DNA from: Antedon mediterranea
Lineage: Eukaryota > Animalia > Echinodermata
Direction: 5' to 3'
DNA length: 64,000 nucleotides
Assembly: GCF_964355755.1 (NCBI RefSeq)
Contig: NC_092672.1
Span: 12,462,001-12,526,000, forward strand
Shown: piece by piece, positions 15,874 through 62,412 of the stretch
Layout of the letters: every line of letters starts with the position of its first letter
How positions within the stretch are numbered: the first letter of the stretch is position 1
Translations under genes and position numbers: made by a program
The notes under the pieces: generated by a model
The model's database searches: none
The model's input: only the letters and a program-made list of their open reading frames with translations
Told to the model about the DNA's origin: nothing

Positions 15874-15916
<43 letters not shown>

Positions 15917-33662: not shown

Positions 33663-34066
33663 GGTCAATCACAACTGACCTCAGAAAAAGATCGGAAAGC
33701 TGTGAGATGTGGTTTCTAAGGAGAATGATGAGAATTCCTTGGACAGATAGAGTTAGTAATGAAGATGTATTGATAAGAGCTGGAGTGTGCAGGAAACTAC
33801 TGAAGGATATTAAGATTAGACAGATGAGATTCATGGGACATGTGTTGAGGAAGGGAGGTCTGGAGAACTTGGCATTAACGGGGAAAATAGAAGGAAGAAG
33901 GAGCAGGGCGAGAAAAAGAGTCACTTGGTTGGCCAGCATAGCTGAGTGGATTCGGAATAGAGGCGAAAATGCCAAAGAAGTGGAGTTGCTGAACATGGCA
34001 ATAGACAGGGAATTGTGGCACAACATGATCGCCAAAGTCTCGTGATATGGCACTTCGAGAGAGAGA
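33663..34066 (+). mobile_element. 5'-truncated RTE-clade LINE (C-terminal end of the ORF) with 11-bp TSD
   Basis: Translation SCEMWFLRRMMRIPWTDRVSNEDVL...RQMRFMGHVLRKGGLENLALTGKIEGRRSRAR is typical of RTE C-termini. There is a (GA)n tail, and the TSD GGGTTTAACAA lies at 33652-33662 and 34067-34077. Confidence 0.9.
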
Positions 34067-38144: not shown

Positions 38145-38674
38145 CTAAGCATTATATTCTAACTTTTCAGCAGGAACAGTCATGTTATTCTCCTTTAAAA
38201 ATGCAATAAATGATTGCAAGTTATCCTCCCTTAGAATCCCCCTATGTTCAAGATCTAATATCACAGTCCATTGGTTGTTACTTTGTTTTTTTAGAACACT
38301 TTTCAAACGGATGAGATCTCTTGTATTTTCTTTCGAAAGTGCGTCACCAAACTGAATTAGGTGTTGTCGATATGTTGAGAAGGATGTGATACACTGGTTG
38401 GTTTTATCGAATGTCTCCTTTAACAGTTTGTTGACCTCCAAAACACCATTGGTACTAGTGACATTAATTGCGTCAATAAGAACTTTCACGTTGGTAGTGG
38501 TAACATTGCCAGATCGTTTCAATAAGTTGAAGAAATCTATGCAGTCAGCATTCTGTAGATCATTGTAAGGTGTTATCAGATCTTTGCATAACACCTTCAG
38601 TTTATCAAGAGAGCCATGTTCATCATACCAGCTCGATACGTTTACCACGATTTTTTCAAACTCTTCAGATGATT
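38145..38674 (-). CDS. Terminal exon encoding two divergent death-effector (DED)-like domains
   Basis: Two ~80-aa helical units: FEKIVVNVS...LDKLKVLCKD...IDFFNLLKRSGNVTTTNVKVL and FSTYRQHLIQFGDALS...WTVILDLEHRGILREDNLQSF. The second resembles the S.YR.LL..i...L...LE..g.l...NL pattern of caspase-8/cFLIP DED2. Confidence 0.7.
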
Positions 38675-41600
38675 CTGCAGTAAGGCATTGTAGAAAGAAA
38701 AGAATATTGAATAACATTGTACTAGTATCATTATAAACAAATACACTTTTGTTATAAACGAAGGTATAGTCAAAGAAACACACATTTTTACTTATTCCCG
38801 TCTTTTAAATAGCTTAGACAATATGTCAGTAGGCCAAGTGCGTTTACTATTAGGCCTACTGTATACGGTTTTTCTGTATTTATTTTGCGAACCTAAAGTG
38901 AATGACTCAATGAACCAATTGAATAAATCTGTGATTAGGATACATTTATCACAGTTTCTAAAGTGCTAACACATTTTCAAAATGTTTTCAAATATAAAAG
39001 TTTTAGTGAGCTTCCACCAGTAGGGATTACTGATACGGACTCTATATGATAAAAATACATTTTCAGCGCAATATGTTCAACTTTAATTCTTTATGAAATG
39101 ATATGCCACAAATCATGATGAGAATCCTACACAAGTGTTTGTGTGACGCAGATTTTTGGGGCAGGCTTCCATTGAACTACCCAAAAGTGGGAATCATTAA
39201 AGATAAAGATAACTTCACATCACATTTAAAGAGGGTAAATTATATGGTATTCAAACGTGAAAACAGGGCTGCAAATTAACTTTTTTACTTGGTAGCACTA
39301 TCAAATTTGTATGATGGCTCATAATAATTTTTGGTAGCACCACCAATTTTTTTAGTAGCACCTTTTCATCGACAACTAACCCCCCTTCCCTCAAACAAAC
39401 CCCATCCGCGCAGATCCGTTTTTAGTTTAGTGGTGGGGGGGGGGGGGTGTATAAAAATGAAATACAGTACAACCTTAGGCTAGGGGTCAGGGGGGCCGCC
39501 AATGGCCCCGCTTTGGGGGGGGGGGGATTTTTGAGTAATTATAGGTTGTTTCAATCGATTTCTGAGCACATAAAAATTCAGCACTGAAGAATTCAATTAA
39601 TTTGGGTTATGCACGTTTAGGCACTGGTCCTGATGCGCCACTTATATTCACGCAAGATCTATTCTTTTTACGGTACAGAAAGAAATTACTGCTTTGTATA
39701 TACGCGTAATCTTTCGTAGCCTACGCGTAAATAGATCGTAGGTCATTGTTCGCTAAACATATCCTGTAATTTCCAAAGTATTGTTCGTTGCCATGCCTAC
39801 GATGTATTGTTTATGATAATATCTACCCGTCGATCGTATGGTGGTTCGTAGGGTTAGTAATTTGTAAACACCAATGTCATCGCCTTTAGGAGCATGAACA
39901 ATGGAAACAAACATGTATTGTTGGCTAATTAAAATCCTAGACGTTAATTTTTGTAGCCGCCCTACACATCGGTTGTCCTAATTTGGCAGGACATCCGCCG
40001 ACGAGACGACATCGGGCCCGAGGCCCTCAGCTCACGCAGAGAGAGTTTTCGGCGGCCTACCTACATGATTCAATCCTACCTTGGTTTAGCGAATTATAAA
40101 AACAACACCTTGGCTAGGACACCAACAAAATATATGCAAAATAAATATATATTCCATGTTAAGATTTAACATAGGCCTTTGTAAATTATTATTACGACAA
40201 AAGACCCGACCAGAATTTAACATAGGCCTTTGTAAATTATTCTTACGACAAAAGACCCGACCAGAATTTGGAGGGGAAACACGTGCGAACCGTGGGAACA
40301 GTTTAGAGCTGTATTACGTTTCATGTGACGCAAAATTCAGGTACACTGTTTTGTAGCCATCATCACCCCCCCCCCCCCCCCCTCGTACCGAGTAAAAAAA
40401 AACATGCGAGAGGTTTGCGGTGGTAAAACAGAGTATCGCGTTTCATGACATGTGACCAAAAAACTAGGTCTGTATTAATTACGATCTTCTGTCGGCAGTC
40501 TTTTTGGGCAACCGATTGAACGTTCTGATACTATATTTAGAATGAATTGTTTACGATCCTTTTGTTTGCATGTTTCTGGATTGACTGGACGTTCGCTATA
40601 TTATTTTTATTAGTTGGCATAGTTCATTGTGTTGGATCGTGTCTCTACGTTTACATTGTGGGAAATTTATATTCGCCGTTGAGAGTAAAGAAAAACACAC
40701 GAATGAAACATTTACGAATAAAAACTATTAGCCTATATTATATATTTCTTAGTAATGTACAAATTGGTCCTCCTCCGCCAGTCAAAAATAACACATTAAA
40801 TAATAATTTTCACACCTTGTTACTTCACATCGTGGGGTTGTTTATTGAGGTTACTAATGAAGCCAAACAACGTAACCTACAAAGCCAACAACGTAGCCTG
40901 TTTTATCTACGAAGCTAATTCGTAGGAAAAGTTGCGGTATTCTGGATATATAATTTTCGATAATCAGAATCTGGAATAAAGTATTAAATCTACTGATAAA
41001 CAATACTGCTGTTTAATCTATATAATGAATAGATATTATTATATATATCATTAATTACATTATTTAGTAATCATGATATATAACCGTTAAACCTAAAAAT
41101 ACTGATGGCTGCGCGGCGACAATCCTTTGTATCTGCCGCGCCCGCCCTGGCTAACTTCTGTGTACGGCGGTACAATTGTTTTTATATTTTCTTCCTTCTT
41201 TAATAACGGAGGTGATTTTCCACGAGGTTTGTGTCGTCCGCGCGTCACACTGTGCTGTGTGTTTGGTGTCCTTTTGTGTGATTGGGTAAGGCAGCATGCA
41301 ATAAATGGACGAATTTCCAATCACAACGAGTGTAAAATGTTTAGGGGCTTTGTACGCTTGAATGAACCTGACTCCTTTGCGGCGGCGGTGACTTGTGGAA
41401 ACTCCTGAGCCTTCCGTAGTAGAGAGATTAAATTAAAACACAGTGTTTGAAATAGGGAAAACACACCTGACTTCAATTTGAAACAACTCGCACAAGCAGA
41501 CGATCTTGTCGCGCTATGCGCGACCTATTCTGTTTCTTTAGTCGCAAAGAGAAAAATTAGGTCGCAAATGCGACCAAATACCCCTTAATTTGCAGCCCTG

Positions 41601-44600
41601 GAAAATGGCCTTGTGGCAATACCATTATTACAAATATAAAGCTACCTCTATAGTGCAGTGTTGCTGGCTCTACACAACTTCTTTCTGAAAATGAAAAAGA
41701 TAATTACGATAATGATTGATAGACTGTTTTACTGCTCTTATTTGTTTGGGTTTTCCTACTTCTAACAGTTTCAAAAGTTGTGTTGGCATCACTATTGATA
41801 ATCTAGTTTTTAGTCGCGTGGAAGCGACTCTATAGTTCACTATGTCGGTCGGTCGGTCTGTCTGTCGGTCTGTCTGTCTGTCTGTCGGTTCGGTATCACT
41901 ATGCGTTTTATCGCTTTCTGACCTTATCTTGATATCAGTTTAATCTAGCTAGGTCAATTTTTCACAGTATATTCCTTATGGCCAGGAATCAATGTGGTTA
42001 TGTTTTCACGGTGCGCAATAAAAAATTACGCGGTCTACGCACGATTTAACGAAATCACGTTTGTAATCATATCTTCACAACCATGAATCACAATTAAATA
42101 AAATTTGGTACTCATAAATTTCAGGGCATAAATCATCATATGGCAATACAATTACGTGCGTAGCGCATGTAACGCATGCGTACGCGCGCTTAAAATTTTC
42201 CAAATTTATTTTCGATGAAATAAGAGTACATTTCAGGCAATTTTAAGCGTTTACAAAATTGCCATGAGTGCGATATTTTTGCGCGCGTACTGCGCGTTAA
42301 ATGTTATTGCGCACTCTTTTTGCCCGATTTCTGTTTTCTTGACTTACTTTTTAACTCGAAATTACGTTATGCGAGCACGTCGAAAGTGACAGGCTACGCA
42401 CGTGTAAATTAAAAAAATATAAATGTTTTTAAACATTTCAACATTTTTAAACATGTTCAGTAATTTCGGTCAGTATAGTTCACTATGTCGGTCGGTCTGT
42501 CGGTCTATCGGTCTGTATGTCGGTCCGGTATCACTATGCATTGTAGCACGCGACTTAATGGCTGTTGGCCTTGTTAAATTGTAGGGTACAGTAATGGTAT
42601 TTCTAGGGCTGGTATATGTAATGCATTTTAACAGATGGTTAATTTATCAAGACTTTACTCAAATCTTGGAAGAAAGAAGAAAACATACAATAACATTGTT
42701 CTTCATAACTTTCGAAAACAAGTTATGTTTTAAAAACACTCATTCATTTTTAAAAGACTTATGTATGGTCAGATGATAACGTATAGTTCAATATTTCTAA
42801 TACTTGTATTTAATAATAGTGGTTGGTACAGTATGTCAGATAGTACAATATGTGTATAATAATGATCATAGTAAGTAATTATTAGGTTTCATGAATAGAT
42901 TGCACGTAAAAGTTGAATAATGTTTTCATTATTTATACAGATATCATTCCAATAGTAAAAGTGTGAAACTGTAAAATCAACCTACTTACTTGTTTTTTCT
43001 GATGTTGAAGACATACGTGTTTCAAATGTCTTTTCTCTTTCTCCTTCAGTGGCATTTTGTTCAGCTGTAAAAAACAATTCATTTTGTAAAAAAGCAACAT
43101 AAAAATTGGAAAAGTTATTGTTTTGAATTCCTTTCCAATCGTGTAGAATTCTTATAAATAAATTCAATAAATAAGTGTAAACAATACCATTCAGTTACTT
43201 TAGAGAACATAAAATAAAAGTAAATAAATGTTCAGACAAACGTACCGGGCAAAAACAGACGCTTGATATGAGCAGTATCCATAGCGTCATTCTTTCCACA
43301 TTCAACCGAATTCTCGTTTAAACACCTTTTGAGATTGTGTAAGTGATGTTTATTTGGATCACAAACAGTGCATAATACACGAAGTTTGTAACCGATACCC
43401 TCGTATATAGTACAGACAGTTTGTAGTTGTTTCTTCAAGTAGCTTAGTACCTAAAATGAGACGGACATTTTATCTCAAGATATAATTTATTATTACATGT
43501 CATAGTATGTTAATTTGTTAATTTCGTGTTCATTACCTCCATGCAGACACTTGGTTGTAGTTCTGGTTTAACTTTCAACTCTATGTTAGTGTCATCAATA
43601 GCTGTAGTAGGACTCCAGATTCTTAGGCGATATATTTCAAGCTGTTAAAAAAACGAAGAGAAACATGTATACATGGGACCATTACTAATTTCAGAATCAC
43701 CTTTTGTTAAATTGAATACAAAATACATCATTAAGTTTACAACTTTAAGTAGGGCTAATATAAACGGACATATTCGATGAGGTAGGTGATTATTAAAGTA
43801 ATCCAGATTTTATGATATTTCCTTTTGCATATATCTTAATTGAAAATGTAAATGAAAGTAAAAGAGCATGTCAATAGATATACTGAATGTATATACCTTC
43901 AATGCATATGGCTTTTCTTGTGTATTGTTAATTTTGACGACACCTAGACTGACTCTATGTTCTTTAAAGTTGAAGTCACTACGATTCCGATATACTAGTG
44001 GATCATCACTGTCGGCTTTCGTCGTCAATTCAAGAAATGCAACAACTAAAGTGTGGTACACAGCATCAGGGAGAAAGTCGGTCGGAGTAAGGTAAATTGA
44101 TACCATTTGCACATTATCATCTTTGGTGACTTCCAGACGCTCGTTGTCCACTTTCATCCGACACGGAACCAAGAACACTCGGTTACTATCTTCAACCCCC
44201 TGTTATGAACATAGTTACATAATTTAAAAGACAAACTTATTTTTTTATTATTCTTAAAATATTAAAATAATGTACTAGTTTTACTATCTACAGTTTTTTC
44301 TTCTTACATCACATTTATGTTTATTTTCATACAATAATGATGTTCATAATGATACTATTATTTTTATTCCTAAAAATAGAAAAAAACTAATTTAAACATA
44401 AAATGATATCAGTCTAGTGAACGTAAAATACGGAACAACTTCCTAAAAACATCACAGATTCATCTACAAAAAAACATGCGGTTCTTTCTTAAAAGATTTT
44501 TCATTTAACTCTAAACTGTTATATTAAAAAATGAAAAAACAGTCAGTTAATGTTTAGCTTTGTTTTTTTCTGTCGCTAATTTGTATTTCCATATACAATT

Positions 44601-47600
44601 ATAACTTGGTTTAATTTGTGTTAGAATTAAACTGTTAATTAATAATTGTGAATCAAAAGCCGAATTATAAATTTATCTATACCATTATCACATTTGTTTT
44701 ATTATTAATTTGTTTGATAATCATTATTTTAAACATGTATTGTTAACTTTGTTTAGATTGCATTTATAATTTAGACCATACATGCATACATAATAATTGT
44801 TAATAAACCTTAGTTTAGGAGTGTGTACTTACCGCCATTTCAAAAAGTAACCGAAACTCCTTCATTACTTCTATAAACACTTCAATGTGGCCTTCTTCCT
44901 GTTGCCATAGATAACGTAGTAACTTCTCCTCGAGAATCCCTTTCTCACTTAGCTTATTCCATAACTGCATCAGTTGCTTCTGTGTAAAAATCGTCTTAAC
45001 TGTATCACTAAACACACGGTAATAATTATGTTTGACGAATCAATGAAATTAAGTCAAGAACAACAATGCAATTCCTGCCTACCTTTTTAATAGTCGGTTT
45101 AACTACTGTGATCACCTTTGTCAACATCTGAATCATTATGTGAATATTTGTTATCACTGTGTTTTCTAATTTCTTGTTAGTATTTGAATACATGATTGCT
45201 CCAATGTCATTTAGGTACGTTAATGCATGTAATAGCCCATCTGTTGAAATTCCACATTCAGTGCAAATCACAGAAGCCTAATAACAAATTGAGATTATTT
45301 AAAGAATTTGCGTACACTCTATTAAATCATAGATGATTATTATAGATCTTACTATAGTTTATTATAATATCTCTATGATTGAATGTAGACGATGGTTTTT
45401 AGAAATTAGAATAATATATTGGGTAAACTCTCAAATTGTTGTAAAAAAGAGACGTTTTGACCAAATTAAAAATATTTGAATTGATGTAAAATATATAAAG
45501 AAACCTAAAATTTTATCAGTGTCTTTAAACTTACTCTATTCTGTCTGATGTCAACTTATTTTATTAGCTGCATTATGGGAGTATGTTTGAATAGGTGTAA
45601 AACATGACCGAAGTAATAATATGTACCGCGTTTAGAGCGTTCAAAACAATTGGCTCTTTATAAATCTAGGATCATCATTATCATTTTGGCTCTTTATAAA
45701 TCCAGGATCATCATTATCAGTGTTATTACCGTTGTCGTCGTCGTCATCGTAATTTTTAATAACGTTCTACCATTTTTGCAGAATTATAAAATTCTGCTAA
45801 AATGGGCAAGCCAGAATGATATACATTGTCCCAAGACCTACAGTATATTTTATAACCAACAAAAGTCAATACATGATTATTATCTTTAAAAAATAAAAAA
45901 CATACCTCAATGAAGGTAATGCATAGTCTGGTTTTTCCCATTCCTTGCAACCTTTCTTGCAAATCAAGCCACTTGAATGGAACGGTTCTCACCATGTCCT
46001 TCATGTAACGACCAACGTTTCTTCTTAGTTGTTTAATACCTTCATGCGATTTTACAGTGTTATCTACCATGTACATCTCACGATCTACATGATCGGCATA
46101 TGGCATTCCTTCCATTGTTCTAAACATTAACTGAAACTTATCCTCCACTTCCTTTAATAAAAATATTGTTTTCATTACAAGCGTAAACAAAACAACACAA
46201 ATTTATCTTTTATTACAAAATGTTCATCCACATTCTGATTTGAATACATCTAGACCGTATACTATTAATTACCGATTATTTAATATAAATGCAGAACCAA
46301 TATTACCTCCATCCAAATTTTTGATTTTGACTTTTTCAATTTGTCCATATGTGTAGCAACCAAACAGATAGGAGGTGACTGGATAATCTTGCCAACAACG
46401 TCAATGGGACTTCCTGGACCATGTCGTTTCACAGTATGTTCATAAATGGACCTTATCCAGAACATATTCATTTCCAAATTGGTCATTCCTAGTGTACTCT
46501 AATATCACAAATAAAATGCAATCTTAAGAAGTAAGCTAAAATATTCTCAATAACAAAGATATGCATATTTAATAAGTGTCGAGCGAAATAAGTAGGTAGT
46601 CAACTTACTGTGGTTGAATCTCGCGGATTAGCTGGTTCATCCAAGTTATCACACGCATTAAACGTTACACAGTAGGATACTCTATTTGTGAGGAAAAACT
46701 AAACAAAATACAATTGATAATAATAACTTTTTTTTAATACTCCAACACATTTATTAGGGATGTGTTAATTGATACATGCACTAATACTTTATTGAAAATG
46801 TTATACCACAACACAATGCCGTACTGTCACTATGAGCAAATCTCTTTATTTTTTAATAATCATTTAACATATAAAACAAAAAATATGAACAAAAGAAAAA
46901 ATATGTAAATCAAACAAAATTTAAAATATAATTTAAAGGTCTGTATAATAGAATAGATACGTAAACAAGCAAATCAAGGCCCTTTTTTTAAACATGCGCC
47001 AATAAATTTATTTTTTAATTTTTAAGACATTTTTAAGTAATAGCAAATAACAAAATAGGAACATACCCTATGCGTTATGTAGTAGTCCAGTTGACCTGCG
47101 TAGTCCCATATAGTAGTTACGTCACTTGGAATACTTTCTGAATCATCACTTTTTACAAATTTCCTAATCATTTTCATCGCCCAACTATCTTTCTGTCTTC
47201 GCTTTTTTATTTTAGCAACAACTTTTCTTTGAATTGAGTCGGGAATTGTCAGATTTTCTTTTAGTTGACTCTCTAAATTCAAATAATTACTACAAATCAA
47301 TGGTGTGTGTGTGTAAATTAGATATGGATATGGATAGATGGACTGGTCTGATATGTTGTGAGTAGACATAATGAATGTTAAAATGGATAAAAACTGTATA
47401 CAATAAATAAATACAACAGGATGATTAAAGAATTGAACGAGCAGCGAATATTTTTGATTGCCCAGTTTTAATACCAATGCAATATTTGCATTTTAATACA
47501 TTTATTTGTTTTCAACAAGAAAAGAAACCTCACTCTTCCCTGGTTGGACTAACTTTTTGAGAACAAAATTTTCCAGAATGTTTCATAATAATGGTATAAT

Positions 47601-50600
47601 GCCATACATATTATTTTATCAAATATAAAGAAAACCAAATGATGAGTCTAACCCTTTCTTGCCGATTCCACTGCCAATGACGTGTAATCAGACTCTCTGG
47701 AATCAGATGTAGAAGCCTCGTCTAAAGAAAGTTCGTTGAAAGATGTTCTTTCTTTCATCTTTGATGTAATTTCTTCCACTACAGCCTCTTCAAATATTCT
47801 CTGGGATTGCTTGAATCTGGAGTTTTCTGTCGGCGAAAATGTATAACTAAAAATGATTATTTGTGTCGTGTTGCACTCATAACGAATAAAATGGTTATAT
47901 TATTATATACTAGAGCAGTGAAATATCACTTATATGCCTGTATAAACTCCACAGTTTAACAAGTACTACTTTATATTAATAATAATAAAACAATAATATA
48001 AACAACACTCCTATGAAGTTATAGTGTGATAATTTTGTGTTTCTTTCAGTATCAGCATGTATAATACACTACATTAATTTATTATTTACATTAAGTTGGT
48101 TTATTTACTTTTTTTTAAGAAAAGAAATTACTATTTTAGATCTTGTCATGCAATTAATTTGTTGTTTATTAATTCGTGCGAGGACTTGTTAGGCCTATTA
48201 CTATTAGTAAAGTGATTATATGCGAAACGACCACACTTTACTTATGCAAAATGATCGTCAAAAATATTAAAAAAAATAATCAAACCTTCCACTGAAAACA
48301 CAGAGTCAGAAGATATAGAACATTCGAAATCAGATATTGAAGGTGTTGAAACTGCACCTTGTAAATGGAATTTGGTTTCAGTTGACGTTTGTTTTTCCAT
48401 CTTTGCTGTGATGTGTTCAGGCGTTTTCTGAGATCTTCCTGCAATTCATTATAATATATTTTTTATACAATATATAGAACGTCTAACATTTCACTTTTAT
48501 GTATGTTTCTATACTGTATGAGTGCATCTTAACTTGATTATGATCACCAATACTGTTTGTTTAGAATAATAAAAATACCCTTGTAATAGAAATTATAGTA
48601 GATAATCATCATACCTGTTTTTACTGGATCCAAAGAAGAGATTGCTGATGATTCCAGTTGGGAATCAGATTTAGATGTTGACATATCTGAACTTCCTTCA
48701 CCATCATCCATTTCTTCCTTTATTAACTGTGTTGCAAGTTTTTCTGCAAGTGCATCTTCCCGTATTTCCTTGTTGAGCTCCATAACTGTAAAAAAAAAAA
48801 GCAAGGTTGTACGGTACACATCTTAGAGATAAATTAAAATATGAAAATTAGAGAAATGAGATCTATCAAAAAATCATCATCATCACATGTAAATAAAATA
48901 AATATAGGCCTATGTAAGTCATATAAGTAATTATAGACCAAAATGCATTTAAGTATTTAATTAAAATATTATTTCCAATGTACCTTACCGGTACGTGTTT
49001 ACCTTTATTATGATACTAATTAATCTCTATAAACAAATTGGCCAAAGCACGCAATTATGCGTATGTTGAACGAAGAAGAAAGAGAGAGTTTCTCTCTTTT
49101 GTGGGGACAGCCCACTTTGAACGAACAGTTAATGTGTCATTTGGTATTGTTGACTTCTTCTTTTCAAACTTACCGTCGATATCTTCCTTCTTCCACTTGT
49201 CACAGTCTTTTCCAATTGCTTGAAACAATGTCGTTGTAATAACAATACCATCAGTAGATGGTTCGTTGGATTTAAATCTACAATATATGAATAATGAACT
49301 CCAAAAGGTCGGATTTAAAAAAAGTAGAATGTATCCAATAGTTCATCTTAAAATATTAATATATTTTAAATAAAAACACAAGTAAATAAGCAAATGACAT
49401 ACCTTCAGCAGCAGCATTTGCATAAAAAGCGTCGTCACCATCACTGTCAATATCATTATCATCATCGTCATTATAATCATCATCATCATAATCATTATTA
49501 TCAATCGTTGATACCTGAAGTTTCGTGTTTGAGTAACGGGTTTTCATTCCTTTTCGAATATTTATTATTATTCGAAAAGGAATGAAAACCCGTTACTCAA
49601 ACACGAAACTTCAGGTATCAACTATTTATAATAAGAACCTCACTAATGCCAATTTCTGTATTTTATATATTAATATACTCAGCACCAAACTTACTATAAA
49701 AAGGTAAACCAAACAACTCTTTTAATGTTGTCAATTGCATTAAAGATAAAGTTGTTTATTAAATGGTTCAAATAACAAAAGAGTGATGTATATTTTATTT
49801 TATAAAAAAACTTTGTTCTTTTGTTACCTTTGTCCAAGCATGGCCTTTACACAACTAGTTTTTCCAGCACCTTCTTTCCCGAGAAACATACATCTTGAAT
49901 TTACAACTGCAATATGGCCATTTTCAAGTTCATTTTGAAATGATCTAATTGCGCTCTCACCTCTAGCTAATATTTCAACTGGAACTAAATTGCAATTAAA
50001 ATAAATGCAAAATATACAAAAACAAATACAAATATTTTGAATCAATTCAAAGCCATAGTTTAAAAAATGTCATTATGACAGCTCATCTTTGTCACATTCG
50101 TACAGTTCAAAGGTACAGTACAATGTTCAATGTGTGTCATTAGTAATACACAGTTTAATATTCATGTTGCAAAACTCAATCAAAGTGTATTAATAAAAAC
50201 TTACTGTCAAATAACTCCAATATCTTATTTTTCTTTTCTTTGGAGATATCACTATTATCCTTCAAAGCAGATGCTGGTGTTTGTCCACGCTATACAAAAA
50301 AAATGTATTAAAGTATTATCCACTGTTACTTTACTAATCTATATATACATTTACGTAAGGGAAACAATCAATCACCCCTTACTTCTAGAATTTTTACTCG
50401 ATGGTATATAAAGTTGGTTCGTACTTTCGGTACTGATTTTAACCACCTTATGTAACTCTGTTTACTAATTAAATTGAGTTAGATAATTATTTATTGACGA
50501 TTAAAGCAAATTTACGATTTGCCCCGAATAGAGATGTTTTTCACAAATTGTTTTACATTATATAAACACATACAAATAAACTTTATTACTGACAGTTGCT

Positions 50601-53600
50601 TCTCAACGTTTGTATTACTTAATAATGTAATTACAAAAAAAATATAAACGTCGTAGTGGTGTATCATTACATGTACTGTACTGCACTTTAATCGACTATG
50701 ACGGTGACAGTTTCAACAAAGTATTAAATCGCAATGTTTAAATGTATTTAGTGGTATATTATTTGTAAAACATGAAAACAATTAATATTTCGTTACTAAA
50801 TGGATAAAGAATATATTAACAAATTGTTCCTATTTGCACTCATCCTCTTTTCCATCCCTCAACCCTAATGTTACATACAAAACACAACTTAAGTTTGTTT
50901 AAATTTGACTCAAACAATTGGTCTCATTTTGTGACAAGTTTCTCTTTCGGAAGTAATTCACAGGCTGCTAATTTTAGTTGAGTACATAAATCACCGTTTT
51001 TATTTATTCGTTATTGTAAATGACATTTATTGTCCTGTGGTACGTACATTTGAAATAGCCAGTTTTTTAACGCTGAAATTACTATGTATTCGAGAAGCAT
51101 CTGTGGACGACCTAGATGCGAGCGAAGCGAGTAAACTATAGTAATTTACATATTCCGGATTGTAATAAACACATGCATAAGCTAATAGTGTGCACACGTT
51201 AATATGACACAATCTGAGTACGTTTGCACTAACAAACAACAATACTGCGCTATATCAAGTACCAGTTATTATTTTTAAAAAGGCTATTAAAAAAAATATT
51301 ATAAAAGAATGGTTGATACTGATTAAATGTACATGTTAATTATCGCATCTATGAGAAATTATCACCACTAGCAGTAACCCGTGCTCCGCATGGTCTTTGT
51401 CGGCTTTAATATATGATTATATACTAATTCGCATGGGATGAGTAAGTATCATATAAGCGCACTCTTCCCTCATAAAACGCCATGGATTTTTTATACACCA
51501 AGTATTCCCTCACTTTTAAGTAACTATGAGCTACAAAATGAAAGCAATACTGGATATGGGACTTTCCGGAAATGGAAAAATTGTGCTGTGTGAATAAGAT
51601 GATGCGCGCAATAACATAACGAAAGTATAAAATGGCGAACTATATTATTTTGGGTGTTTTCGGTGGTATTAATTATTATTTTGATACATTGAAATAAAAA
51701 GTGAACAAAAATTGAACGGAATAGAAAGTGCATGAGATTAAAACATTTTAATAAAGTATTGGAATAAATCAACACAAAAAATAGTCGAATTTGGCAATGA
51801 GCTCGGACACAAACTATTACTTTTTGGGTGTATGTTTTTTTTTAGACAAAAAAATTACTGCTATTGTTTGCATTTTTTGTGTTTATCCTTAAAAAAAATC
51901 AGGAAAGTGACATAGCCTATCGTGTGCGGCCCATCAGTAAACATCAGTGTGCCAAATGTAAGTTCAGTGGTTTTGGAAGAGATACATAAAATTTAAAAAA
52001 ATTAGTAGCATTAATATTTAGATGCTAACATAATGTCTTTAAACAATTGCCGCCCTTTCTGATATTGTTTGGCTCCATCAAGATAATGATTACTGTGTAT
52101 TAGTTAACAAAAGATTTGTAATATTTTAAAGTTGATAGATACTCCTAATCAAAATAAGAGTATACCTTGGATATGTAGGCGTAATGGTTTGCTAATAAGC
52201 ACAATTTAAAAATGCAAATGCAATGTTGTTGCATTAATTGATGGTACCTTGTTTGTTGCTTTAAGTGATGCTCCGTACGCTATGAGACTGTTCACTATTT
52301 CTAGATTACCACTCGTGCCAATCCTAACGTGTTCATGTAGCGGTGTGTTTCCCTCCTGGAAAGCAGAAAGTTGTATGTATAATAATATACATTTTACACT
52401 TTAGATACTAGAACTAAGGTTTAAACAAATTTAATATGTATTCGTTCTGCTCCTACAATTATAACAAGCAATTAACTACTACATCTAATTATTGTATATT
52501 TTGCTTCTCGTGGGCTACTCGTCTTTCAGTAGGTAACTTCGATGATCATCCCTGCCAAATCGGAAGGACTTGTCTGGCGGGTGTAGGCGATTATACAAGT
52601 ATAATTATTTAAACTCTGGCGGCAAATGGAAATGCGTCTGGCAGATGGACAGCCGAGAATGAGTCCAACGGATGTGAAGCATATATGTCTATCGATTATA
52701 GAATGAAAGTTAGATGATAAATCTGAATTAGGGTAAAAAATTGACTTCAGTAATGTAAACGGAGTCCCATCGTTTTATGACTTTTTATGAAATCATACAC
52801 ATAAGCGCCATTATTGGTTCGGCATCATAGTCCGCAAGGTCTATGGTCAAGAAATTATTAAGTAAATGGAGTATGTTGTTAATTGTCTACGATACTGTAG
52901 ACCACAGTATGACATTACTGTAAATAATACAACTAGTTGATTTTAATTGGGACGTGGAGAGGTGTTAGCAATGAACATACTTTTGAAAGTATTGGTATTA
53001 CCGTCTTTGATAAATAAATAACTTTTTACACAATGAAAATAAATTAAACAAACACAAGGTTTGTTTATAATAATGGGAGCTCATTCAAAATAATAACATT
53101 AATAATTGTTTAAATCATTTTAAAAGAGTAATTTACATTGTTTGTTGCTGTGATTGATGCTCCGTGAGCTATGAGACTGTTCACTATCTCTACATTACCA
53201 TGGCCATACCTAACGTGTTCATGTAGGAGTGTGCTTCCATCCTGGAAAGAAGAAATTAGATTAAACTTGACGCATTTTTTTTAAGAATACAGGTAGTATT
53301 ATATTACATATTTATCCTTTTCTACATTCATTTTGTAATTATTTAATAGTGACTGTAAATCATAATAAGGTAATAAGAAAATAAGAAGAAAATAATACAA
53401 TTTGCTGAGTTTAATTATTATAATACAGATGGGTTAGCATTGAACACATTTTAAGAAAATAATAATACAACTTGTACCCTGGAAAGAAGAAAGTTAGATT
53501 AAACTTGACGCATTGTTTTTAAAGAATACAGGTAGTATTATAATTATTACATATTTATCCTTTTCTATATCTCATTTTGTAGTTTATTGAGAGTGACTGT

Positions 53601-55893
53601 ATTATAAAGAAGATATGGTTTTAAGAAAATAATACAACTTGCTGATTTTAATTATTATAATACAGAAGGGTTAGCAATGAACACATTTTAAAAGTATTAA
53701 TTTAGGCTCTTGTTCAATCTAAAATGCTACAGCTACACAATTTTAATATATTTTAAATTGTATTTTTGCTTTGATAATAACTATACATTTTTCAAATGAA
53801 AAACACATTAAACGAATCTAGGATTTGCTTATAACGGGGGACAATTTAAATTCAATTGTAATGTTAACTAATACGAATAATTACGTTACGATTTTTAAAT
53901 CATTGTAAAAGAGTAATTTACATTGTTTGTTGCTGTGATTGATGCTCCGTGAGCTACGAGACTGTTCACTATCTCTACATTACCACGGCCATACAAAACG
54001 TGTGTATGTAGCGGTGTGTTTCCATCCTGGAAAGAAGAAAGTTAGATTAAACTTGACGCATTTTTTTAAGAATACAAGTATTATTATATTACATATTTAT
54101 CATTTTCTATATTCATTTTGTAGTTTATTGAGAGTGACTGTAAATTATAAAGAAGACCTGGTTTTAAGAAAATAATACAACTGGCTGATTTTAATTACTA
54201 TAATACAGAAGGGTTAGCAATGAACACATTTTAAAAGTATTGATTTAGCGTCTTGTTCAATCTAAAATGCTACAGCTACACTATTTTTAATATATTTTAA
54301 ATTATATTTTTGGTTTGATAATAACTATACATTTTTTCCAATGAAAAACACATTAAACGAATCTAGTGTTTGTTTATAATGGTAGGTAATTTAGATTAAT
54401 TTATAGTGTTAACTAATGCGAATAATTACGTTAATGATTTTTAAATCATTTTAAAAGAGTAATTTACATTGTTTGTTGCTGTGATTGATGCTCCGTGAGC
54501 TATGAGACTGTTCACTATCTCTACATTACCACAGCCATACCTAACGTGTTCATGTAGCGGTGTGTCTCCATTCTGGAAAGAAGAAAGTTAGTTTAAACTT
54601 GACGCATTTTTTTTAAGAATACAGGTAGTATTATATTACATATTTATCCTTTTCTACATTCATTTTGTAATTATTTAATAGTGACTGTAAATTATAATAA
54701 GGTAATAAGAAAATAAGAAGAAAATAATACAATTTGCTGAGTTTAATTATTATAATACAGGTTAGCATTGAACACATTTTAAGAAAATAATAATACAACT
54801 TGTACCCTGGAAAGAAGAAAGTTAGATTAAACTTGATGCATTTTTTTTTAAGAATACAGGTAGTATTATATTACATATTTATCCTTTTCTATATTTCATT
54901 TTGTAGTTTATTGAGAGTGACTGTAAATTATAAATAAGACATGGTTTTAAGAAAATAATACAACTTGCTGATTTTAATTATTATAATACAGAGGGGTTAG
55001 CAATGAACACATTTTAAAAGTATTGATTTAGCGTCTTTTTCGATCTAAAACGCTACAGCTACACGATTTTCAATATATTTTAAATTGTATTTTTGCTTTG
55101 ATAATAACTATACATTTTTTCTACTAAAGAAAAACACAATAAACGAATCTAGAGTTTGCTTATAACGGGGGACAATTTAAATTCACTTGTAATGTTAACT
55201 AATACGAATAATTACGTTACGATTTTTAAATCATTGTAAAAGAGTAATTTACATTGTTTGTTGCTGTGATTGATGCTCCGTGGGCTATGAGACTGTTCAC
55301 TATCTCTACATTACCACGGCCATACACAACGTGTCTATGTAGCGGTGTGTTTCCATCCTGGAAAGAAGAAAGTTAGATTAAACTTGACGCATTTTTTTAA
55401 GAATACAAGTATTATTATATTACATATTTATCCTTTTCTATATTAATTTTGTAATTCATTAAGAGTGACTGTAAATTATACAGAAAAACCTGGTATTAAG
55501 AAAATAATACAACTTGCTGATTTTAATTATTATAATACAGAGGGGTTAGCACTGAACACATTTTAAAAGTATTAATTTAGCGTCTTGTTCATTCTAAAAT
55601 GCTACAGCTACACGATTTTCAATATAATTGTATTTTTGCTTTGATAACAACTATACATTTTCCAATGAAAAACACATTAAACGAATCTAGGGTTTGCATA
55701 TAACGGGAGATAATGTAAATTCACTTGAGTGTTAACTAATACGAATAATTACGTTAATGATTTTTAAATCATTGTAAGAGCAATTTACATTGTTTGTTGC
55801 TGTGATTGATGCTCCGTGAGCTATGAGACTGTTCACTATCTCTACATTATCAACGCCAAACAAAAAGTATTCATGTAGTGGTGTATTTCCCTC
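38145..55893 (-). CDS. ROCO-family protein: 6 ankyrin repeats - ROC GTPase - COR - tandem death-effector domains (24 exons; 5' start exon not located)
   Basis: Hand-spliced GT-AG exons: 55893-55789, 55357-55253, 54572-54468, 54026-53922, 53241-53137, 52355-52248, 50289-50205, 49984-49828, 49277-49174, 48785-48615, 48438-48286, 47826-47653, 47272-47067, 46698-46609, 46498-46307, 46151-45906, 45277-45083, 44979-44833, 44199-43897, 43641-43537, 43450-43246, 43064-42990, 41684-41646, 38674-38145. Phases are compatible and the total is 3810 nt. Motifs: P-loop GKEGAGKTS, G2 STDGI, G3 WDYAGQ, G4 VATHMD, COR-like ALTYLNDIGAIMY and FLVPC. Confidence 0.88.
39264..41600. mobile_element. Non-autonomous hAT-like TIR element in the last ROCO intron
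   Basis: Perfect 16-bp TIR CAGGGCTGCAAATTAA / TTAATTTGCAGCCCTG with repeated subterminal motifs (GGTAGCAC; GTCGCA/TGCGAC). Only 5 bp (GAAAA) are duplicated at the flanks. Confidence 0.7.
41807..42575 (+). mobile_element. Solo HINE/DINE-1-like element (family E) in a ROCO intron
   Basis: TTTTTAGTCGCGTG-gaa-GCGACT head, (GTCG/GTCT)n microsatellite, 3' CACGCGACT + small hairpin GGCTGTTGGCC + TTGTT. The interior 41925-42410 is homologous to the family D body. Confidence 0.85.
49507..49622. repeat. Perfect 54-bp inverted repeat with 8-nt loop (intronic)
   Basis: GTTGATACCTGAAG...TTCGAATA / TATTCGAA...CTTCAGGTATCAAC. Confidence 0.92.
50338..51141 (+). mobile_element. Shorter copy of the 25900-27356 Helitron, in a ROCO intron
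   Basis: A|TCTATATATACATTTACGTAA start. Colinear with 25900-26110 and 26735-27345. The 3' hairpin is degraded and the element ends ..CTATAG|T. Confidence 0.82.
51368..52022 (-). mobile_element. Non-autonomous Helitron of a different family, minus strand
   Basis: The minus strand reads A|TCTAAATATTAA ... ACCATGC-gga-GCACGGGT-tactg-CTAG|T. Confidence 0.62.
52248..55893 (-). CDS. Six single-ankyrin-repeat phase-0 exons (5 x 105 nt, 1 x 108 nt)
   Basis: Each reads xGxT(P/L)LHxxxxxGxxN(V/L)EIVNSL(I/V)A(H/Y)GAS(I/L)xATN(N/K) and is flanked by TTTCCAG| and |GTA. Confidence 0.92.
52530..52600 (+). pseudogene. Decayed EGF-like exon antisense within an ankyrin intron
   Basis: After TCTTTCAG| it reads GNFDDHPCQIGRTCLAGVGDYTS, compared with the EGF consensus C..xPCQNGGTCxDGVxxYTC. 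A stop follows shortly after. Confidence 0.45.
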
Positions 55894-56015
55894 CTGGAAA
55901 GAAGAAAGTTAGATTAAACTTGACGCATTTTTTTAAAGAATACATGTATTATTATTATATTACATATTTATCCTTTTCTACATTCATTTTGTAATTCATT
56001 AAGAGTGAATGTAAA

Positions 56016-56194
56016 CACCCGATTCTGTAGCTGTGGAAGTGTGGAAGACTGTCGACAGTCTACCAGAGACCTATCTGACTATATTAAGTACCTTTAATAC
56101 ACGATATCGCTGTCATTAATACAGTCAGATAGGTCTCTGGTAGACTGTCGACAGTCTTCCACACTGAGTGTACTAACAGCTACAGAATCGGGTG
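56016..56194. mobile_element. Palindromic MITE with CACCCGATTCTGTA termini, inserted in an ankyrin intron repeat
   Basis: Inverted arms; flanks ATGTAAA / ATATAAA form a 7-bp TSD with one mismatch. The empty site GAGTGACTGTAAATTATA is visible in sister intron units (e.g. ~55464). Confidence 0.85.
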
Positions 56195-58409
56195 ATATAA
56201 ATTATAAAGAAATACCATGGTATTAAGAAAATAATAACTAACTGATATCAATTAAGAAATGCAGAGGATTTTGCAATGAACATCATTTTGAAAGTATTGA
56301 TTTTAGCGTCTTGTTAAATGATGTTTAAAATACTTTTAAATTATAATTTATCTTACTTTGATAACAAAAATATTACTTGTGTTTCACAATGAAAAACAAA
56401 TTATACAAATACAGGGTTGGTTTATACGTGAGCTCATTTATATTAACTATTGAGTGTTAATTAATACGGACAATAACGTTAATAATATTAATTCATTAAT
56501 TTAGTAATTAACATTCATTTTGTAATTCATTAATAGTGACTGTAAACTGTAAAGAAAACACCTGATAGTAAGAAAGTAATACAACTAGCTGATTTTAACT
56601 TAGACGTGCAGATGTGTTACCAATGAACATTTAAAAGCTGATTTTAACTTAGACGTGCAGAAGTGTTTAGCAATGAACATTTAAAAGCAGATTTTAACTT
56701 TGAACATGTACTGTAGATGTGTTAGCAATGAACATACATTTGAAAGTATTGATGTTAGTGTCTTTTTTAATCTAAAATTTGACAGCTGTACATGGTATTT
56801 ATATATCGTAATTTTTATGGTGATAGTTAATAACTATAATTAATTTAATTATTATTATTATTTAATAAAGGACGTTTAATTTATCATTTTATTACAAAAT
56901 GTAATGACAAAAATAGAGATAGCCGACCAATTTGGTGCTTAGTGAACTTAATATTATTATTTTGTATACTTGATCTTGAAAATGGTTCTATGATGCTACC
57001 GGTTTGCTTAAAACGAGAGCTGACTAAAATTAACTTTTTAACTACTACGAATTATAACGTCACTGATTTTTAAGTAATAATAAATCTCTGTCTACGCTAC
57101 CAAACTCTATCAATAAAGCATCACATGAAATGTGACTGAACGATATCATTAGTAGAAAGGACACCAACTTGCGGGAAGCGATCCAGCACATCACCTTTTA
57201 AGCCTGGTTTCCAGTCTGCGTAAGACCTGCTTCTGTTTCCGATTGAGCCATTTTCTTACGATAACGCTTGCCTTCCGATCAGTTGACCAAAAACTAAGGT
57301 GGACAATGATCATGACCGCGTTGGACCGCAAAGATTAAGATCATTACATGTGCTGATTCCTTCCTTGTTGAAGTATGTCCTTCCTGACGTTAGGTCGAGT
57401 TGAAATGTTTTCCTGCTTTTACAATGCATGACACGGTTAACAAGAATTTATTTATGATTGCCTATAAAATTCCGTAGGTAAATGGCATCTTTTGAAATGA
57501 AGTGCCTAACAAAACTGGACCCGCAAGGATGTACAGTACATAATTAAATGGTGATAGTCGCCGACAAAATTTAATCTTGTTGCTGACAATTTGTTTCATG
57601 ATTTTTACCCGGTTTTGAATTCCTCTTTTTCACACGTGGCTAATTGAAATGATACAAACATCAAATGATCCTATACATTTCGTTTAGATTCAAGTAAACT
57701 TTTGTGAATACTGAATTTGTAGATCTGTATGTATTTATCAAACCGCCTTCAAAAAATAATTGCGAATTCCACCAATACACTCTACGGTGAATTCACTAAA
57801 TATTGTTTATTATTAATCTATTATCTATCCCACCTTCATTCTACAATTAAAAAAGAAAATATTACGTATTTCGGGTGAACGGTTTTTAAATATTTGTTGC
57901 TTTTGTATTTTATCCTATGGGTGTCGTACTGTCTGCATTTTACCCATGTTATCATATTTTTACTATATTTATATAATAAAAAGTGACAAGAAAGACAATT
58001 TATTTTACATTTCTCAGAGCTATTTGGTATTTCATCATTATTACATTTTTCACAAATTAAAATATTGTGGTTTAGGGCCTACATAGTTATTGTCAAACAT
58101 TCTCATATACAGTACTTCATTGCCTCTTTGTGCTGTATTTCACCTTTCCAAGCTGTGGATGCTTGCCAACGCCGCATAATTCACCCCCGTCATGTCAGTG
58201 ATCGGCTAGTTTTTACGATCCATTGTTGGGTTTACGCTTCCGAAAAAGCTGACTTCAAGTCATGTGCATCTACAGTTATCAGTTATCACCAATGTCCGCG
58301 TTTCTGTTCTTTCTCTTTATTTTCCAGTTATATGCACTTTATATATTTTATTTGTTGCTTGTATTTTAAAAGATACTAATAGATATAGATGAGAACTGAG
58401 CTAAGATGA

Positions 58410-58550
58410 ACTATTTTAGGTTCTATTTGTTCGATTTATGATCCATTTAGTTTCGCAGCTCCTGTACATTACAGGAAAGTTTTACAGGCTATGTGCAAGC
58501 AGAATTTACACTTAGACGAACCGTTAGCATCTGAATTACGGACCAGTTGG
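58410..58550 (+). mobile_element. BEL/Pao LTR retrotransposon pol remnant, part 1
   Basis: Reads TILGSICSIYDPFSFAAPV..KVLQAMCKQNLHLDEPLASELRTSW, matching the Pao-type SIYDPLG..AP....K..LQ.LC.....WD.PL motif. Confidence 0.8.
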
Positions 58551-58836
58551 TTAATTTCTTTCGTTCCTTTGAATGATCCAAGAAACACTTATTATTATGG
58601 TCTTTGGCCGAAATAATATAGGCCTAGGCCTACATGTGCCGGTGCCAACCCGAGGTATGGTCAATAAAGAAACACACTATATGACATTTCGGAAACTATT
58701 CTTTATTAATGTACTTTCTTACAATCCGGTGAAAACTAGAAAGAAATGCAACACAACAGGATTAAATAAAACCTACAACGTTGCTAGCCCACCGCTACAC
58801 ATTATACGGAGTATATAGGGCCTCACAATTTGGCTA

Positions 58837-59722
58837 GCGTCTAGTTCCGTTTCGCACCTGTTTTTATTTCGACTTCCTTTTGACTCCAAATTGTTAAGCA
58901 ACTTATTGTGAATACCACACCTTAAAATTGGGCCTCATAAGTACTTTTATGAAGAAGAATCACATAAAAAGTAACAAATAAATCCTTAAATTGATGATTT
59001 TACAGACATGTTTCTCGCATACCGTTCGCCGCGAATTTAGCATACTCGAAGTTCAATATTTTCCTTTCTATGGAGCGCCAAAAGAGCAACAACAATAGAT
59101 GGTTAAAACCTCAGTGGAATGCGTCTTCTTTTAATGCATTTATTATTGAAATACACGTTTAATTGTAATATATTTTGTCAATAAAAATGCTGTAACATTT
59201 TACTGCTAATAATTTGCTGTTTTCAAATAGCAACCAACCTAAGAGTAAGACTAAGAGGCATATTATTTAGATTAAGGTATACCCCTACAGTACATGTAAT
59301 ATGATGATGAATTTGTCGATTTTCATTCCTAACTAAAAAAAAGCTCCTGAAAAAACCATGTACAGTATCAACAGTAATATTTTTGTTGCATTGACAAAAT
59401 ATGATAAAATTGAACGTAATTTTCACCAATAAATGCATTAAATATACACAATTTACTGAGTTTTTAGCCCTCAATTATGATTGCTCTTTTAGCGCTCCAT
59501 AGAAACAACAACATTGAACATCGAGTATGCGAAATTCACGAACCGATGTGCGAGAAACACGTCTGTAAATTCATCAATTTAAAGGATTTATATTTTACTT
59601 TTTGTGTGATCTCCTTCGTAAAAGTATTAAAGAGGCTTAATTCTAAGGTGTGGTACTCACGATAAAGTTACTTAACCAATTTTGAGTCGAAATAAACGAC
59701 AGGTGCGAAACGGAACTAGCGC
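58837..59722. mobile_element. Diverged long-TIR/foldback MITE
   Basis: CTAGTTCCGTTTCGCACCTG.. (58841) pairs with ..CAGGTGCGAAACGGAACTAG (59720). Inverted similarity extends more than 250 bp inward. Confidence 0.75.
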
Positions 59723-59962
59723 CGGCCTAGAATAGGTAGGCTAGTAGGCTAGGGCTAAAATAAAATGCTCGTTTAACTATCAAATAACAAATAAACAGTA
59801 ACAAAATCTGTCTCACCACATTTGGCCAGTGTCATTAACAAACTTCTTGGAATAACAATAAATGCGTTAAAATTGAATCAAACAACAATACTAACAATTA
59901 AACTACTAGGCCTAGCTAGGCCTACTAGGCCTAGGGCCTATTTATCAACTGTGAGATTTAAA

Positions 59963-61606: not shown

Positions 61607-62412
61607 GATTTAAATGCGCTGCATGCTTGCCGTTAAATAATTATAGAGGGGGTAGTTTCAATAAACTTTGGCGCAGACGGCTACAATGTATATAGAGTGC
61701 GTTTAACAATATTTTCTGAGCTTAAATGAGATCAGTATTTGTAGTAGACATAAGGACAATATATTTTAATTTAGATGGATTATTTGTGTAAGAGGAAAAC
61801 ATACTTAGTTCTACTATCTGAATAAACTAAAGGGAATTTATCTTCAATTGATTGTAGAGAGCATAATTTTCATAGTTTATCATTAGGCTACTATTAGGCC
61901 TAATACGATTCCATCTTCCTTTTTCTAGTTATAATATTCCTAGTCTTTGTTTAGTCACAATGTGTCTATGTTTGTAATTTTAATTAAGTATTCTTCCGTT
62001 CCAACATAATTTATATTGATTGCGTGTGAAATATTGGAGCTATAGAGAGTGTAACCTATTATCTCATAGAATTGTGTCGTTCAATAAGCCTCGCCTTTGT
62101 AAATTTTGAAATAAAAAATATTGTTGACCTGTTGAGCATGCCATGTTGCCAAATCCATTTATAGGCCTACATAATAAGTTTTACATCATTCACCCAAATC
62201 GCTCATTTTGTTGCACTTTTCTATGTTGAAAATCATAACATTGTTTAATGATTTGTTCATAATCTATTTGGCTTACTCTCAGCCACTAACGAATTCAATT
62301 AATGATACTTTGAGTTTGGATAGGGAATTCTCGATATTCTCCACTCACTGCATCACTTGGTGCAAAACTTTCTATTCCTAAAAGATATTTTTATTCTAAA
62401 ATCAAAATATAA

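Follow-up and report, generated by a model that had tools for sequence, protein, structure and literature searches.

The window analysed here is a 64-kb stretch (64,000 nt) of AT-rich animal DNA from the feather star Antedon mediterranea (contig NC_092672.1, positions 12,462,001 to 12,526,000). It harbors a minus-strand gene, to which we refer by its coordinates as the 38145-55893 gene. As assembled by a splice-site scan and translation, the gene consists of 24 exons (3810 nt) that run from 55893 to a stop codon at 38145 and encode, in a single uninterrupted frame, a protein of 1269 amino acids (aa) with the domain order ANK (six repeats)-ROC-COR-DED-DED and without a kinase. Each acceptor carries AG and each internal donor GT. 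An alternative acceptor at 45007 was discarded, as it breaks the frame that acceptor 44979 preserves. The RefSeq protein XP_071944625.1 of the same species ('uncharacterized protein') is identical to residues 176-1269 in 1094 of 1094 positions; the independent annotation therefore shares the junctions, including the 39-nt exon and the junction 41646>38674. Both this junction and the kinase-less ANK-ROC-COR-DED-DED frame had been proposed in an initial annotation of the window, and they are borne out by the open frame of 24 exons, the identity to the RefSeq protein and the Pfam matches.

Pfam detects COR-A (2.3e-15) and Roc (6.4e-10) in XP_071944625.1, both above cut-off, as well as DED (5.2e-6; 27 bits, below the cut-off of 35.9), COR-B (0.0045, below cut-off) and a weak Ank. 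No Pfam kinase family is found at E<=0.01 in this protein. P0010 shows no kinase family, and P0006 and P0014, which are full-length paralogues, show none either; the first exon of the 38145-55893 gene lies outside the model. Neither NACHT nor NB-ARC is matched by Pfam in XP_071944625.1, whose core is ROC-COR. In the ROC domain the motifs G1 (GKEGAGKT), G3 (DYAGQ) and G4 (ATHMD) are intact; the fourth motif named in the initial annotation, G2, is assigned by eye only. COR directly follows ROC, and by these features of its sequence the gene is a member of the ROCO family. The best PDB matches of paralogue P0016 are solved Roco structures (4WNR, 3DPU and 6HLU), and a PDB search with P0006 returns generic ankyrin proteins in its best 60 rows. 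G1 and G3 are separated by 274 aa, compared to 105-108 aa in five other Antedon paralogues, and the insert between them is about 170 aa longer. At the end of COR-B (43246-43450) we note a Cys/His cluster (CxxC...H...C...C), conserved by eye in the crinoid paralogues and possibly zinc-binding. The features are listed in Table 1.

Table 1. Features of the 38145-55893 gene and its upstream region in window coordinates.
Feature	Position	Strand	Basis
Candidate upstream exon, 34-codon open frame, two ATGs, phase-0 GT end	57096..57197	-	Intron homology and open frame; without N-cap similarity or RNA support
Tandem array of exon-plus-intron units, source of ANK exons 1-5	53089..56515	-	85-92% identity between exon-bearing units
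ANK exon 1, 105 nt, phase 0-0, one repeat, with acceptor	55789..55893	-	Pfam Ank 2.9e-6
ANK exon 2	55253..55357	-	Splice model
ANK exon 3	54468..54572	-	Splice model
ANK exon 4	53922..54026	-	Splice model
ANK exon 5	53137..53241	-	Splice model
ANK exon 6, 108 nt, sole ANK exon of the RefSeq model	52248..52355	-	Splice model, Pfam, RefSeq
ANK C-cap / linker exon	50205..50289	-	Splice model, RefSeq identity
ROC exon with P-loop (G1)	49828..49984	-	Splice model, Pfam, motif
ROC exon with switch I region (G2, by eye)	49174..49277	-	Splice model, RefSeq
Ser/acidic ROC insert, three phase 1-1 exons (48785-48615, 48438-48286, 47826-47653)	47653..48785	-	Splice model
ROC exon with switch II (G3)	47067..47272	-	Splice model, motif
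ROC end and COR-A start (46698-46609; 46498-46307, with G4; 46151-45906)	45906..46698	-	Splice model, Pfam
COR-A exons (45277-45083, 44979-44833)	44833..45277	-	Splice model, Pfam
COR-B exons (44199-43897, 43641-43537, 43450-43246), Cys/His cluster at end	43246..44199	-	Pfam COR-B, below cut-off
Linker exon, phase 1-1	42990..43064	-	Splice model, RefSeq identity
39-nt linker exon, phase 1-1	41646..41684	-	Also in RefSeq model; homologue joined to DED exon in paralogue contig
Terminal exon, whole tandem DED (175 aa) and stop, phase-1 acceptor	38145..38674	-	Pfam, AlphaFold2, Foldseek, PDB profile, ESM Atlas

The terminal exon, first read as two DED-like units from the sequence letters, is recognized as a tandem DED by profile and structure searches alike. 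Pfam DED matches it with 1.3e-7 over two stretches. An AlphaFold2 model computed from an alignment of 37 sequences reaches a mean predicted local distance difference test (pLDDT) of 94.2 and a predicted template-modelling score (pTM) of 0.89; it replaces an earlier, poor model from 10 close paralogues (pLDDT 69.9, Foldseek E about 0.09). All 23 Foldseek matches listed, from 167 at E<=10, are DED structures of caspase-8, cFLIP or vFLIP, with probability 1.00 and template-modelling (TM) scores of 0.51-0.71. A search of the PDB with the alignment profile returns eight matches at E<=1, each of them cFLIP or FADD (E 0.13-0.76), and the single-sequence search gives only one weak match to a RhoGAP (E 0.46). 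The top matches in the ESM Atlas are a DED cluster at 0.94, in which 51% of the members carry a DED and Echinodermata are commonest, and a v-FLIP-like one at 0.91. Individually the scores are modest, but they are concordant: according to the predicted fold and the profiles, the terminal exon is a divergent tandem DED.

The same type of DED occurs in a wide range of other crinoid proteins. A HMMER scan with the DED exon yields 150 clusters, and 81 of the 144 new ones, picked for longer proteins, were scanned for domains. These contain NACHT (23 proteins), Roc/COR (12), TIR (3) and caspase (2) domains, as well as one each of RIG-I, Rel, protein kinase, USP and fibrinogen-C, among others; the denominator of 81 includes P0144 (DUF7507) and P0177 (fasciclin), both apparent false matches. 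An organism look-up assigns 20 of 20 matches to crinoids (11 to Anneissia, 9 to Antedon). The DED type is thus present on feather-star NLRs, caspases, RIG-I and NF-kB-like proteins. Combined with fast-varying ankyrin repeats and a GTPase module of the LRRK2 type, it makes the 38145-55893 protein a likely intracellular immune sensor.

Several of these proteins are of interest in their own right. P0108 (XP_071955940.1, Antedon) carries a tandem DED of the crinoid type at the N terminus of a Rel-homology (NF-kB-like) protein and could tie DED assemblies directly to a transcription factor. P0102 (XP_033103796.1, Anneissia) is a RIG-I-like helicase with a tandem DED in the usual position of the CARD. 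P0040 (XP_033103043.1, Anneissia) is an NLR with five consecutive tandem-DED units ahead of NACHT-LRR. P0197, P0204 and P0208, located on one Antedon chromosome, are caspases with a second crinoid tandem-DED subtype that is missed by the precomputed Pfam list.

The initial annotation had the DED pair recruit caspase-8, and one explanation to be considered is that it seeds the assembly of FADD and caspase-8 into a canonical DED filament. The fold does resemble the tandem DEDs of caspase-8 and cFLIP, and Antedon possesses a canonical caspase-8 with DEDs (P0193). Against this, in trees of 42 hand-selected DED pairs (34 crinoid-type and 8 canonical caspase-8/10, two models), the crinoid-type DEDs are split from the canonical rows, including those of Antedon and Anneissia themselves, at 100/99. 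An approximately unbiased (AU) test rejects the joining of the subclade of the 38145-55893 gene to the crinoid canonical caspase-8s (p=0.00036, for a group named after the tree had been seen). On the crinoid DED profile the gene scores 194 bits, whereas canonical caspase-8 DEDs reach at most 43 (Antedon's own 37). Canonical DEDs are characterized by the RxDL charge triad and the hydrophobic FL motif. RxDL is present in none of 37 crinoid-type rows, compared to 51 of 116 matches of a caspase search, and the FL-motif position of DED1 is occupied by V in 29 of the 37 rows, where canonical DEDs have F or Y. A canonical filament is therefore quite unlikely, and the canonical caspase-8/FADD pair is probably not the partner. 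Crinoid-specific caspases with the same DED type would be better candidates. The DEDs of the Anneissia ROCO proteins P0023/P0028/P0033 are sister to that of the non-canonical caspase P0182 (100/97), and those of Antedon P0005 (second pair) and P0016 are sister to those of the caspases P0197/P0204/P0208 (100/99). The non-canonical caspases in these sister groups retain the catalytic His and Cys motifs.

The 38145-55893 gene has numerous relatives, the counts of which come from protein searches only and are lower bounds. A ROC-COR search, with scoring confined to the 7993 best-sharing candidates (662-2109 aa), returns 33 proteins: 11 from Antedon, 17 from Anneissia japonica and 5 others from outside the crinoids (23-24% identity), such that 28 of the 33 are crinoid. 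For the genome-wide paralogue count suggested by the initial annotation, this gives at least 11 ROC-COR proteins in Antedon. The models of P0006 and P0014 are complete, from a start Met through ANK, ROC and COR to DED. Other Antedon members show variants of the architecture: P0005 adds ZU5 and a second DED pair, P0013 has a second ROC-COR, and P0047 has DED pairs at both ends. The tails of the 17 Anneissia models consist of DED (6), HEPN_DZIP3 (3), Death (1) or nothing recognized (7), and the full combination of ANK, Roc, COR and DED is found in none of the 17 (Pfam, E<=0.001). A COR tree of 32 rows, built without P0008, P0029, P0031 and P0032 (COR <200 aa) and without P0009, P0036 and P0039, which are redundant or distant, groups the 14 Anneissia rows into one clade (100/100), with HEPN tails in two of its subclades. 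The three non-crinoid rows sit on long branches, hence no root and no family origin are inferred. Modules also differ in their similarity between neighbors. P0187, on the chromosome of the 38145-55893 gene, is identical to it in 88-95% of positions in ROC, 53-64% in COR and 29% in the DED, and P0003/P0011/P0012 of the same chromosome cluster in 88-89% in ROC-C, 56-66% in COR and 90-92% in the DED. Judged from these comparisons, the gene is part of a ROCO family that has expanded in crinoids and whose members have swapped their tails (tandem DED, Death, HEPN, ZU5).

We further note P0009 (XP_071944617.1), which is 100% identical to residues 654-1269 and represents either a second cluster copy of very recent origin or the record of an isoform. 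The distant matches P0037 (Oculina coral), P0035/P0036 and P0038 (Mytilus) are likewise kinase-less ROC-COR proteins; the tail of P0037 is a PNP_UDP_1 domain, and swappable ROCO tails are thus not confined to crinoids.

The family bears on two further explanations. First, the DED pair could resemble cFLIP or vFLIP in function, as a regulated decoy or scaffold that caps or sequesters the DED assemblies of crinoid NLRs or caspases and thereby dampens or redirects signalling. Structure and profile searches both place cFLIP and vFLIP among the best matches, a catalytic effector is missing from the protein and its filament motifs are altered. Yet the same DED type is N-terminal, the usual activating position, in 23 NACHT proteins of the 81 scanned, the replacement of the tail by HEPN or Death in paralogues fits an effector slot, and the identity to cFLIP/vFLIP (15-20%) does not exceed that to caspase-8. 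We regard a decoy as improbable. Second, a function outside immunity, such as trafficking, development or cell death linked to regeneration, as for DAPK1, MFHAS1 and the LRRK proteins, would agree with the roles of characterized animal ROCO proteins (PMC4104024, PMC6337361). A species-level expansion, tail swapping and clustered ANK variation are unexpected for a conserved housekeeping switch, and only 5 of the 33 ROC-COR matches lie outside the crinoids, at 23-24% identity; a non-immune role is highly unlikely.

The variation of the ANK region is found in its array of single-repeat exons. ANK exons 1-5 lie in tandem units that, as their alignment indicates, arose via duplication of exon-plus-intron segments; exon-less units end near 54806 and 53478, and a degenerate unit is located at 56198-56515. 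The six ANK exons are all of phase 0-0 with one repeat each, in duplicated exon-intron units, an organization of the brown-algal type with ANK instead of LRR. Exons 1 and 6, the two scanned, exceed the Pfam Ank cut-off. Among the variable columns of exons 1-5, 10 of 19 fall into codons 8-15 (24 of 105 nt; Fisher p=0.0016, with the window picked post hoc), which, from DARPin design, we take to be the binding face of the ankyrin repeat. Pooled pairwise differences in these codons are 57 non-synonymous and 0 synonymous. Their mismatch rate is 0.237, compared to 0.013 in codons 16-35 and to 0.041 and 0.067 in the flanking intron; the low rate in codons 16-35, below that of the intron, points to purifying selection on exons 1-5. 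The variable repeat region noticed at the outset is thus resolved into eight codons per repeat that concentrate the amino-acid variation. In the ANK region of paralogue P0014, variation is highest directly after the first helix motif, with some elsewhere. An imperfect inverted repeat of 179 bp, similar to miniature inverted-repeat transposable elements, is inserted in an intron of the array (56016-56194).

ANK exon 1 carries an acceptor and hence needs an upstream exon. The first exon, which the initial annotation had left to be found, was sought with an N-cap profile that gave none in 55894-64000. A candidate is the open frame at 57197-57096: an old copy of the array intron (57084-56930) starts at its GT and scores 81, compared to a shuffle maximum of 63. 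The first exon may be this one or may lie outside the window. It is conceivable that the gene is a 5'-decayed or truncated family member, in which ANK exons 1-5 are unspliced or the start exon is absent, and whose product is absent or sensorless. This would account for the outcome of the search across 8 kb upstream, for the RefSeq model, which uses only ANK exon 6 behind a 29-aa leader unmatched in paralogues, for the exon-less and degenerate units of the array, and for the many partial models in the family. On the other hand, all 24 exons are open with canonical splice sites, codons 16-35 of the ANK exons are more conserved than the flanking intron, the full set of domains, together with a start Met, is present in P0006 and P0014, and the two locations named for a first exon would supply what is missing. 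On balance, decay appears unlikely.

Evidence for transcription comes from two runs, neither of them recorded as RNA; run X1 is taken as probable RNA by its behaviour. In X1 the depth is zero across most of the intron adjoining the 38674 acceptor, where X2 keeps 400-700. An X1 contig with 3 differences in 371 letters departs from the genome at this acceptor with 66 further letters. The loose end of a second X1 contig, 88% alike, agrees with the 39-nt exon in 23 of 30 letters (own count) and encodes the linker of paralogue P0004. The junction type of 39-nt exon and DED is thus seen in a paralogue, and by inference from it is likely in the 38145-55893 gene. Splice joints, those among the ANK exons included, are absent from the matches listed in a 20-kb comparison with read contigs, which is repeat-dominated and covers contigs only.

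In summary, we propose, with a probability of roughly 0.55, that the 38145-55893 protein acts as an immune receptor inside the cell. Its variable ankyrin repeats would serve to bind a ligand, the nucleotide cycle of ROC-COR would set the dimeric or oligomeric state through a putative GTPase activity and switch-controlled clustering, and the clustered DED pairs would recruit crinoid proteins with DEDs of the same type (non-canonical caspases, or kinase, TIR or Rel proteins) rather than canonical caspase-8, with death or an immune response as the presumed output. The sensor/switch/effector logic of the initial annotation gains support from the family expansion, the tail swapping and the DED type shared with the NACHT proteins. 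Its recruitment of caspase-8 and FADD does not agree with the separate clade and the altered motifs, and its GTP-driven dimerization of COR is doubtful in direction. CtRoco is monomeric with GTP and dimeric in the nucleotide-free form, via the C-terminal half of COR (PMC6337361). Clustering upon GTP loading should therefore not be assumed; by analogy, the clustered state may be a nucleotide-free or GDP dimer rather than the GTP form.

A number of observations weigh against the proposed receptor. The Pfam DED score of the terminal exon (32.2 bits) is below the cut-off of 35.9, and the best Foldseek E-value is 1.0e-3, with none counted under 0.001. The absence of the RxDL and FL motifs means that canonical filament contacts are not assured, no caspase or adaptor is present in the gene's own DED subclade (5 rows at 100/99 in the 42-row tree), and the common DED ancestry may stem from exon traffic, not from binding. 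With respect to the sensor, the start exon was not found by the N-cap profile in 55894-64000 nor significantly by tblastn, XP_071944625.1 begins at ANK exon 6 and omits exons 1-5, the window of codons 8-15 was chosen after viewing the data, and the whole-exon excess of amino-acid changes is not significant (20 non-synonymous versus 4 synonymous alleles, p=0.23, five exons). X1 is a guessed RNA run in which intron contigs of low depth occur as well, and the 99%-identical contig from it may derive from the 98-99% identical paralogues P0001/P0002. Finally, the paralogue mosaics rest on automated gene models, possibly chimeric in tandem clusters.

A wider reading goes beyond this single receptor, and we offer it tentatively, at somewhat less than even odds. 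In crinoids, innate immunity inside the cell may have been rebuilt on a tandem-DED adaptor of their own, which would be a mobile exon of phase 1 placed on NLRs, RIG-I, Rel, TIR adaptors, kinases and new caspases. The ANK-ROC-COR-DED proteins would then be NLR-like receptors of a second class, switched by a GTPase. Duplication and mutation of individual ankyrin exons would diversify their ligand repertoire, and neighboring genes would exchange ROC, COR and tail modules.

The remainder of the window contains few other features. Rfam and tRNA scans of the 64 kb give no matches. Positions 1-20000 contain three related tandem-repeat families with units of 1.4-1.7 kb (92-99% identity inside each family and about 70% between two of the families), and the third family shares a segment with intronic 41924-42418. 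An open frame of 149 aa on the plus strand (33596-34042) has no Pfam match; we take it to resemble the C-terminal end of a long interspersed nuclear element (LINE) protein of the RTE type.

Among known systems, DAPK1 shares the domain order: its ANK repeats are followed by ROC-COR and then by a death-fold domain at the C terminus. In DAPK1 a kinase precedes RocCOR and a DD (PMC6337361). The 38145-55893 gene has no kinase, has a tandem DED instead of a single DD and belongs to a multigene family rather than being a single conserved gene; by its predicted architecture it is not a DAPK1 orthologue. The DED pair shares with caspase-8, cFLIP and vFLIP the arrangement of two six-helix DEDs in tandem (TM 0.51-0.71) and differs from them by an identity of 15-20%, the missing RxDL, the altered FL motif, the separate clade and the C-terminal position. 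DED-NACHT NLRs are known in amphioxus, sea urchin and Nematostella (PMC2575513), and they combine a repeat sensor, an NTPase switch and a DED connector in one chain; the crinoid NLRs also have the DED type in common with the 38145-55893 gene. In the latter, the switch is a ROC-COR GTPase and not a STAND ATPase, and the order is reversed, with the sensor N-terminal and the DED C-terminal. The protein is not an NLR, yet by analogy it likely works like one. Related combinations in other animals are the ROCO-TIR proteins of Aplysia (PMC9334734) and a DED-RLR reported from Lingula (PMC8998645).

Expansions of ROCO genes in invertebrates, anticipated by the initial annotation, are known: besides the crinoid family with its 28 of 33 matches, Trichoplax adhaerens has at least 17 ROCO genes, in which ROC-COR is combined with TPR/LRR repeats and CARD/DD (Civiero et al. 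2014, PMC4104024). Both cases are expansions in one animal in which ROC-COR is flanked by repeats and death-fold domains; the text available on Trichoplax names neither ankyrin nor DED, whereas the 38145-55893 gene has an ANK array with one repeat per exon and a tandem DED of the NLR/caspase type. For the exon-shuffled LRR-ROCOs of brown algae, a function as immune receptors has been suggested (Teng et al. 2024, PMC11378527, citing Zambounis 2012). They are similarly kinase-less, clustered genes with one repeat per exon, variable sites on one face and stray repeat units in introns, and differ by LRR in place of ANK and by the lack of a death-fold tail. Positive selection was detected there by PAML, compared to p=0.23 for our whole-exon test. 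A figure of PMC11378527 contains about 40 animal ROCO domain combinations, and ANK-ROC-COR-DED-DED may be among them; one supplement of that paper has no DED or crinoid terms. A full-text literature search, which covered few subscription papers, turned up neither the ANK-ROC-COR-DED-DED architecture nor an account of a crinoid DED network. As far as the retrieved texts extend, the receptor logic has already been proposed (for brown algae, Trichoplax and bacteria), and the architecture and the crinoid DED network were not found in print. In these texts, the proposals of ROCO immune receptors for brown algae, placozoans and bacteria rest on architecture and evolution rather than on a direct test. 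A kinase-free animal family with a simple candidate read-out, DED clustering followed by caspase activation, makes the idea testable. The family also raises the question of what the nucleotide cycle of ROC-COR switches in the absence of a kinase, a question shared with LRRK2.

Prokaryotic LRR-Roc-COR proteins are described with at least 24 tail types, together with a shared-adaptor 'EAD principle' (Kaur et al. 2021, PMC8195603). These predicted counter-invader proteins of the AP-GTPase (Roc)-COR type resemble the crinoid family in that repeats at the N terminus evolve fast, Roc-COR forms the switch and the C terminus offers a variable slot for effectors; they are bacterial, LRR-based and known from prediction only, and crinoid ROCO-DED proteins are unmentioned in the portion of PMC8195603 available. 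In the EAD principle, a small helical adaptor is found on both the core system and the effectors of the same organism, similar to the crinoid DED. If the wider reading is true, the crinoid DED module and the matched DED subtypes of receptors and caspases would represent an animal version of this effector-associated-domain principle, with parallel, insulated death-fold circuits.

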